Source: Escherichia coli (GTDB taxonomy: Bacteria; Pseudomonadota; Gammaproteobacteria; Enterobacterales; Enterobacteriaceae). From it: a stretch of 64,000 nucleotides of DNA. The notes under the pieces are model-generated. The model ran no database searches. It saw only the letters and a list, made by a program, of their open reading frames with translations, and was not told the origin of the DNA. Position numbers and translations under genes: made by a program. Positions within the stretch are counted from its first letter, which is position 1, and each line of letters starts with the position of its first letter. Location of the stretch: assembly GCF_029227855.1 (NCBI RefSeq), contig NZ_CP074356.1; one strand, 5' to 3'. Positions 21,501 through 22,753 of this stretch are shown here, one piece after another.

Positions 21501-22174
21501 ACAGCCAGCACCGCCTGGTGTTCTACACGCGGATACAGCATGGAGAGCCACTGGTCGAGAGCCGCTACCTCTACGACCCGCTGGGACGGCGAATGGCGAA
21601 AAGGGTATGGCGGCGGGAGCGTGACCTGACGGGGTGGATGTCGCTGTCGCGTAAACCGGAGGAGACATGGTACGGGTGGGACGGCGACAGGCTGACGACG
21701 GTGCAGACTGACACCACGCGTATCCAGACGGTGTACCAGCCGGGAAGCTTCACGCCGCTCATCAGAATCGAAACAGACGTGACCGAACTGGAGAAAGCGC
21801 AGCGGCGAAGCCTGGCGGAGAAGTTACAGCAGGAAGGGAGTAAAGATGGTCACGGCGTGGTGTTCCCGCCTGAACTGGTGCGGCTGCTGGACAGGCTGGA
21901 GGGGGAAATCCGGGCAGACCGTGTGAGTGACGAAAGCCGGGCGTGGCTTGCGCAGTGCGGGCTGACGGTGGAGCGGCTGGCGGCACAGATCGAGCCAGTT
22001 TATTTGCCTGAGCGAAAAATACATCTTTATCACTGCGACCACCGGGGACTGCCGCTGGCGCTTATCAGTACTGAAGGTGCAACGGAATGGCGTGGGGAGT
22101 ATGACGAGTGGGGGAATCAGCTTAATGAGGAGAACCCGCATCATCTGTTCCAGCCATACCGCCTGCCGGGGTAG
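18572..22174 (+). CDS. rhs: Rhs-family protein, N-terminal and YD-repeat core portion, ending at an in-frame TAG
   Basis: 1200-aa ORF; N-terminus [11 protein letters not shown]...[10 protein letters not shown] and many YD repeats; ends YRLPG-TAG at 22172-22174 where the core normally continues into the conserved QYDxESG...DPIGL junction. Confidence 0.85.
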
Positions 22175-22753
22175 CAGTACGATGATGAATCGGGGCTGTG
22201 CTATAATCGTTATCGTTACTACGAGCCGTTACAAGGGAGGTATATTACACAGGACCCGATTGGGTTAAATGGGGGGTGGAATTTATATAAATATCCGCTG
22301 AATCCAATAAATTATGCAGATCCTCTTGGCTTAGCCGTAGATATAAACCACTTCCCAGTCAACGAAGACATACGAAATTATGCAGAGAAAGTTTGGAATA
22401 ATCCTAATATCATTACAATTGGAACACATGGTGATCCTCAATCAGTATATGATGAAAATTATAATAAGATAGATGTCAAGACATTAGCTAATGAGGTTCG
22501 AAATCATCCTAAATTTAAACCTGGAATGTCAGTAAGACTGTTATCCTGTAATACAGGAAAAGGAAATAACTCTTTTGCACAGCAATTGGCAGATGAACTA
22601 GGTGTGAGAGTCTATGCTCCTGACCAATATGACTGGTACTATTCAAATGGTAAGGTAGAGCCTTGGGGAGGATTCTATGATGCAAACAATCAATTGCAAA
22701 TGGACACGAATCAGCCTGGACATGAGTTTACATTCAAGCGAAGGAAACCATAG
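22175..22753 (+). pseudogene. Rhs C-terminal segment (DPIGL junction plus ~150-aa variable toxin domain) separated from core by in-frame stop
   Basis: Same frame as the core; reads [53 protein letters not shown] then an AT-rich unique domain; no start codon of its own until 22526. Confidence 0.7.

Follow-up and report, generated by a model that had tools for sequence, protein, structure and literature searches.

A private amber codon inside the conserved core of an Escherichia coli rhs gene is probably a recent pseudogenising mutation

Structures have been solved for several Rhs effectors of the T6SS, among them P. laumondii Rhs1 (7pq5), P. aeruginosa Tse5 (8cp6), P. protegens RhsA (7q97) and an Rhs protein from Salmonella bongori (8qjc). 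These proteins share a shell of YD repeats, a C-terminal plug and a variable toxin that follows the plug. P. laumondii Rhs1 has an aspartyl protease as the C-terminal plug of its shell, with two DPLGL motifs spaced 17 residues apart, the second of which contains the catalytic Asp, and a cut made directly after this second motif frees the toxin (PMC8636562).

An rhs gene with this same organization at the DNA level is present in the window examined here, which is a 64,000-nucleotide stretch of the E. coli contig NZ_CP074356.1 (assembly GCF_029227855.1). The window DNA and the solved proteins also have in common the plug motif G-Q-x-x-D-E-S-G-L...RYY...DPxGL-17 aa-DPxGL. Unlike the solved effectors, however, the reading frame in the window is cut at a conserved Gln inside the plug, and rhs has no vgrG, hcp or Eag chaperone gene next to it. 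None of these three gene types was found among the annotated features of the corresponding locus of E. coli JNEC-KY178, which is colinear with window positions 1-39141. Likewise, no PAAR domain is detected by Pfam in the truncated open reading frame, where DUF6531 is called.

We consider it probable (roughly 0.7) that the interruption is a real, recent and private pseudogenising C-to-T mutation that converted the codon for Gln1201 to an amber codon. The gene belongs to the known E. coli RHS element core protein family, and the lesion is an ordinary internal nonsense mutation. The features that are needed to follow the argument are listed below by their window positions.

18572 to 22174, + strand: truncated rhs open reading frame, with DUF6531, YD/RHS repeats and the PF03527 RHS motif (from the ORF list, Pfam and NCBIfam)
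22172 to 22174, + strand: premature amber codon TAG in place of CAG (Gln1201), through C to T at 22172 (from orthologue comparison)
22175 to 22753, + strand: remainder of the rhs frame, now untranslated, 192 codons plus TAA (from translation; same sequence as the intact alleles in the nearest relatives)
22253 to 22267, + strand: first DPxGL motif, DPIGL, residues 1228-1232, in the Rhs-associated core / C-terminal plug (from the sequence)
22319 to 22333, + strand: second DPxGL motif, DPLGL, residues 1250-1254, 17 residues beyond DPIGL (from the sequence)
22334 to 22750, + strand: C-terminal toxin tip, 139 aa, residues 1255-1393, with a predicted clan CD cysteine-protease-like fold
22810 to 23358, + strand: presumed cognate immunity gene, 183 aa, TPR/Sel1-like, intact (from position and annotation in relatives)

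A sequence-only reading of the window had reported that a 1200-codon Rhs frame stops at the TAG and that the same frame continues beyond it. Both statements hold. The letters at 22166-22183 read CCG GGG TAG CAG TAC GAT, with GAT GAA next, the ORF list gives a 1200-aa product that begins with ATG, and translation past the TAG runs through 192 open codons to the TAA at 22751-22753. The TAG is a deterministic feature of the sequence, and a chance test is therefore inapplicable.

The position of the TAG relative to the Rhs domains determines what is lost. In the truncated product, Pfam places DUF6531 at residues 46-123, multiple PF05593 RHS repeats, and the PF03527 RHS motif at residues 1150-1186, and YD/RHS repeats are also recognized by TIGR01643 (E 8e-35). 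This product matches the NCBIfam RHS_core equivalog model over profile positions 1-1207 of 1261 with a score of 2476.9 bits, and the intact orthologue (1393 aa) matches over its residues 1-1254 with 2592.7 bits; both scores exceed the curated cut-off of 2000 bits. Because the RHS_core model reaches residue 1254, the TAG does not lie at the boundary between core and toxin, as the title of the sequence-only reading had it, but 54 codons inside the conserved core. Consistent with this placement, TIGR03696 (Rhs_assc_core) is found at residues 1177-1254 of the intact orthologue and is no longer detected by NCBIfam in the truncated open reading frame of the window. Gln1201 itself aligns with a conserved Gln of Tse5 and of the Salmonella bongori Rhs protein, in the context G-Q-x-x-D-E-E-S-G-L.

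The TAG is also upstream of both DPxGL motifs, so the plug and autoprotease are lost as well, not the toxin alone. The Rhs-associated core and the two motifs are still encoded in the DNA and are absent from the translated product. By homology, the second motif would hold the catalytic Asp, and the self-cleavage site would fall after L1254. The earlier proposal that the toxin cannot be made as part of Rhs from the gene as written is supported, given that the tip is encoded downstream of the TAG.

Comparison with related genomes reveals how the TAG arose. Window positions 1-39141 are colinear with JNEC-KY178 over 39,141 bases at 99.967% identity, and up to the serU junction at 39126 the two differ by eight substitutions without any indel. 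Disruption of a conserved gene is seen nowhere else in this colinear stretch (before 39126). Within the 4182-nt rhs gene, the T at 22172, where the others have C, is the sole difference from the copies in JNEC-KY178, isolate 362 and NRZ14408 and in one metagenome contig. This agrees with the single CAG-to-TAG change that the sequence-only reading had suggested, and its statement that E. coli Rhs sequences have CAG (Gln) here is borne out by the C at 22172 in every orthologue compared. The intact orthologue in the three genomes is WP_089570725.1, annotated as "RHS element core protein" (NCBIfam NF041261). Its locus occupies the same chromosomal site as that in the window, between a tRNA-Asn island remnant and yeeN, and has the same downstream TPR-like gene; the window differs by the TAG at codon 1201 and by the substitution M106I in that downstream gene.

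More distant alleles, those of N3 and LH85-a, have 21-29 differing sites, yet retain C at 22172. An intact 4182-nt coding sequence is annotated in 13 of the 16 complete genomes inspected, with the same 183-aa TPR-like gene next to it, and a Gln follows YRLPG in all related loci examined (27 of 27). Because C occupies position 22172 in all relatives compared, C is ancestral and T derived. The 192 codons after the TAG have acquired no further change, which indicates that the event, if real, is very recent.

Among the sequences searched, the TAG is confined to this one. Searches by megablast with queries of 901 nt and 86 nt yielded no match spanning the TAG in any of 5,426 complete E. coli genomes. 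The best match to the longer query carries one mismatch, and the shorter query likewise has one mismatch, across 218 genomes. An exact 26-mer that includes the TAG has no match in GTDB species genomes and none in metagenome contigs, where the control 26-mer with CAG is found in 19 contigs. At the protein level, a collection of ~15 billion proteins contains no exact copy of the 1200-aa product, and the intact 1393-aa protein of strain N3, which is one of several intact alleles, is found in 201 contigs. The sequence-only reading had allowed that related strains might all carry the TAG; it occurs in no other sequence searched. This privacy rules out a conserved programmed signal. At the level of sequence comparison, the base change, its derived state, its uniqueness and the loss of the domains beyond it are thus established.

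The same findings have to be weighed against the possibility that sequencing or consensus building introduced the T at 22172 in error, in which case the strain would have CAG and make a functional Rhs toxin of the full 1393 aa. The T is unique when judged against the complete E. coli genomes, GTDB species genomes and metagenome contigs, it is the only difference between this gene and four near-identical copies, and nothing downstream has decayed, which fits an error as well as it fits a recent mutation. However, the window contains no ambiguous bases, and the lack of any indel relative to the closest relative over 39 kb suggests an assembly without indel-type error in that stretch. The site also has neither a Dam nor a Dcm motif, and so offers no motif for base calling misled by methylation, and the changed base follows a GGGG run rather than lying within it. 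Furthermore, the other private substitutions, at 16429 and 23127, behave as ordinary strain SNPs. C-to-T is the most frequent spontaneous change. We therefore regard an error as unlikely, albeit a prospect with some weight, and the T as probably real.

Natural inactivation of the same gene in other strains also argues against an error. In KE55, rhs is frameshifted by a 4-bp deletion at the window equivalent of 20932-20935. EC556 carries the nonsense change W1355*, which hits a Trp of the toxin tip that sequence alignment shows to be invariant. In W13-16, an IS1 insertion is located near rhs codon 1236, between the two DPxGL motifs, and ETEC1701 exhibits a two-piece match and an IS1 annotation like those of W13-16, as judged from the megablast table alone. 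The loci of KE55, EC556 and W13-16 resemble that of the window in that rhs has been lost sporadically, in a lineage-specific manner, within an otherwise colinear region. They differ from it in the type and position of the lesion, which in the window is one transition at codon 1201. Inactivation of this rhs gene thus recurs independently in three other strains, as judged by their sequences.

If the mutation is real, a lineage-private and very recent C-to-T transition would have struck the Gln1201 CAG codon of a chromosomal E. coli rhs gene, and translation would halt within the conserved Rhs core, 54 codons short of its end. The resulting 1200-aa product would comprise the N-terminal region together with the greater part of the YD-repeat shell. 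Missing from it would be the 139-aa toxin tip, the two DPxGL motifs of the autoprotease and the bulk of the C-terminal plug. Judged from the solved Rhs structures, it would be an open shell that has no plug, no autoprotease and no cargo, and by analogy such a shell is probably non-functional. With plug, autoprotease and tip lost, the locus would be unable to make or deliver the toxin and would constitute a fresh pseudogene.

The tip that would no longer be made has no Pfam match at E <= 0.001, including to Peptidase_C80 and DUF4347, and nothing significant in NCBIfam. Its homologues are few, with 9 proteins recovered by a word-index homology search, a number sufficient for building a model and not for a family survey. 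In an alignment of eight sequences, a Cys is invariant (LLSCNTG) and a His is conserved (T/G/A-H-G); these correspond to a candidate dyad of His1286 (22427-22429) and Cys1326 (22547-22549). An AlphaFold2 model of the tip, with a mean pLDDT of 94.1, predicts a caspase-like alpha/beta fold in which the His precedes the Cys, as expected for clan CD. The predicted fold is similar to those of the CPD of MARTX and TcdA/TcdB toxins (peptidase C80) and of the P. aeruginosa T6SS effector Tce1 (DUF4347), although identity to these clan CD domains is only 8-18% and no Pfam match is significant. Tce1 and Tce2 are putative Cys-protease T6SS effectors whose His/Cys dyad has been aligned to that of TcdB (PMC13323088). 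The confidently modelled fold, the His/Cys pair and the likeness to Tce1 and Tce2 together suggest that the tip looks like a CPD/Tce-like protease toxin, and it is a putative cysteine-protease toxin. Unlike the clan CD domains to which it was compared, it would be delivered as the tip of an Rhs protein and has a TPR-like gene adjacent to it. A separate description may be warranted for a CPD-like toxin of this sort, delivered by Rhs, outside any Pfam family and paired with a TPR-like immunity protein.

The gene at 22810-23358 is presumed from its position to be the cognate immunity gene. A tetratricopeptide repeat protein is annotated directly 3' of rhs in all relatives, whereas the Pfam TPR/Sel1 matches of the window product are weak, and neither Pfam nor NCBIfam gives a significant match. 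Of the 16 genomes inspected, 14 encode the identical protein, WP_001578539.1. The window carries a private G-to-A change at 23127 that yields M106I; base-by-base comparison with seven relatives shows G in each. Consequently, both halves of the toxin-immunity module bear a private change in this lineage. By our own estimate, ~0.7 changes are expected in this 4.8-kb module at ~six lineage differences per 39 kb, so that two are unremarkable. Translation of rhs now ends 636 nt upstream of the immunity gene, and one might speculate that polarity reduces expression of the latter if it depends on the rhs promoter. Given that the immunity gene is intact, the strain is presumably protected against relatives that keep the toxin.

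Retention of the immunity gene would also be explained if the TAG were real but leaky, or suppressed by a near-cognate tRNA-Gln or a supE-type suppressor elsewhere, such that insertion of Gln yields the exact wild-type protein in smaller amounts. The toxin would then be turned down, not off. Natural isolates rarely carry amber suppressors, and the basal level of TAG read-through is low. Poole et al. reportedly found in 1995 that a C after the stop codon makes for weak termination, and a C follows the stop here. Experiments with E. coli reporters indicate that TAG read-through inserts Gln, Tyr or Lys, and that read-through is likelier when the five upstream bases are G-rich and T-poor (PMC11126739). 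The five bases upstream of this TAG are CGGGG, and an inserted Gln would restore the native residue; this context makes a small leak conceivable, and nothing suggests one above noise. Against this proposal, the stop is conserved in no relative and is hence no programmed signal. The seven tRNA genes of the window (four Asn, Ser-CGA and a prophage pair of Met-CAT and Arg-TCT) include none with a CUA anticodon, and serU, the supD locus, has the wild-type CGA anticodon. Moreover, no stimulatory RNA structure is evident in the 100 nt from the stop onward, which fold no better than shuffled sequences (z 0.28). We consider meaningful read-through to be very improbable.

The idea that the TAG marks a split gene, whose C-terminal piece has an internal start of its own and is expressed separately as an orphan toxin or immunity-linked module, can draw on the 192 intact in-frame codons and on the orphan Rhs C-terminal modules known in other bacteria, but it is hardly credible given that no in-frame ATG, GTG or TTG occurs between 22175 and 22526, that the ATG at 22526 is past the candidate catalytic His1286 and would yield only 75 aa, that no promoter-like site is present on the + strand at 22175-22810, that no relative has this arrangement, and that a free tip would be without its delivery scaffold.

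A recoding signal, a split gene and a new arrangement are accordingly all rejected, as the stop is private and the window shows no sign of rescue. Under the favoured reading of a recent nonsense mutation, the appropriate annotation is an rhs pseudogene with an internal stop, next to an immunity gene that is intact but orphaned; to annotate the locus as split or recoded would be inappropriate. If this is true, the strain is one interbacterial toxin poorer and presumably still immune to toxin-carrying siblings. The case has little significance beyond annotation and adds a small example of sporadic Rhs effector loss in E. coli.

Several observations concern the surroundings of rhs in the window. 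The gene is located on a small degenerate island beside a tRNA-Asn gene (13034-13109). Two integrase genes of the island are frameshifted (13271-14532 and 15896-16487) and are pseudogenes common to all relatives, and a divergent pair of HTH and hypothetical genes is present at 17404-18050. Colinearity with JNEC-KY178 stops at the 3' end of serU (tRNA-Ser CGA, 39036-39125). The remainder of the window, 39126-64000, matches at 99.5% identity a prophage of other E. coli genomes, with terminase, portal and S49 peptidase genes; its tRNA-Met(CAT) and tRNA-Arg(TCT) genes are at 52694-52951.

Six of the differences from JNEC-KY178 are in annotated coding sequence (window 1-39125), all protein-changing and none synonymous, which is too few to interpret. 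These are L153F in cobT, K20T in an integrase pseudogene, Q1201* in Rhs, M106I in the immunity protein, and L1902F and K2135R in an Ig-like domain protein of 2661 aa encoded on the - strand at 29674-37656. The size and domain type of this last protein suggest a presumed giant adhesin, and its gene has internal repeats of ~690 bp that are 89% identical (33323-34012 versus 33932-34621).
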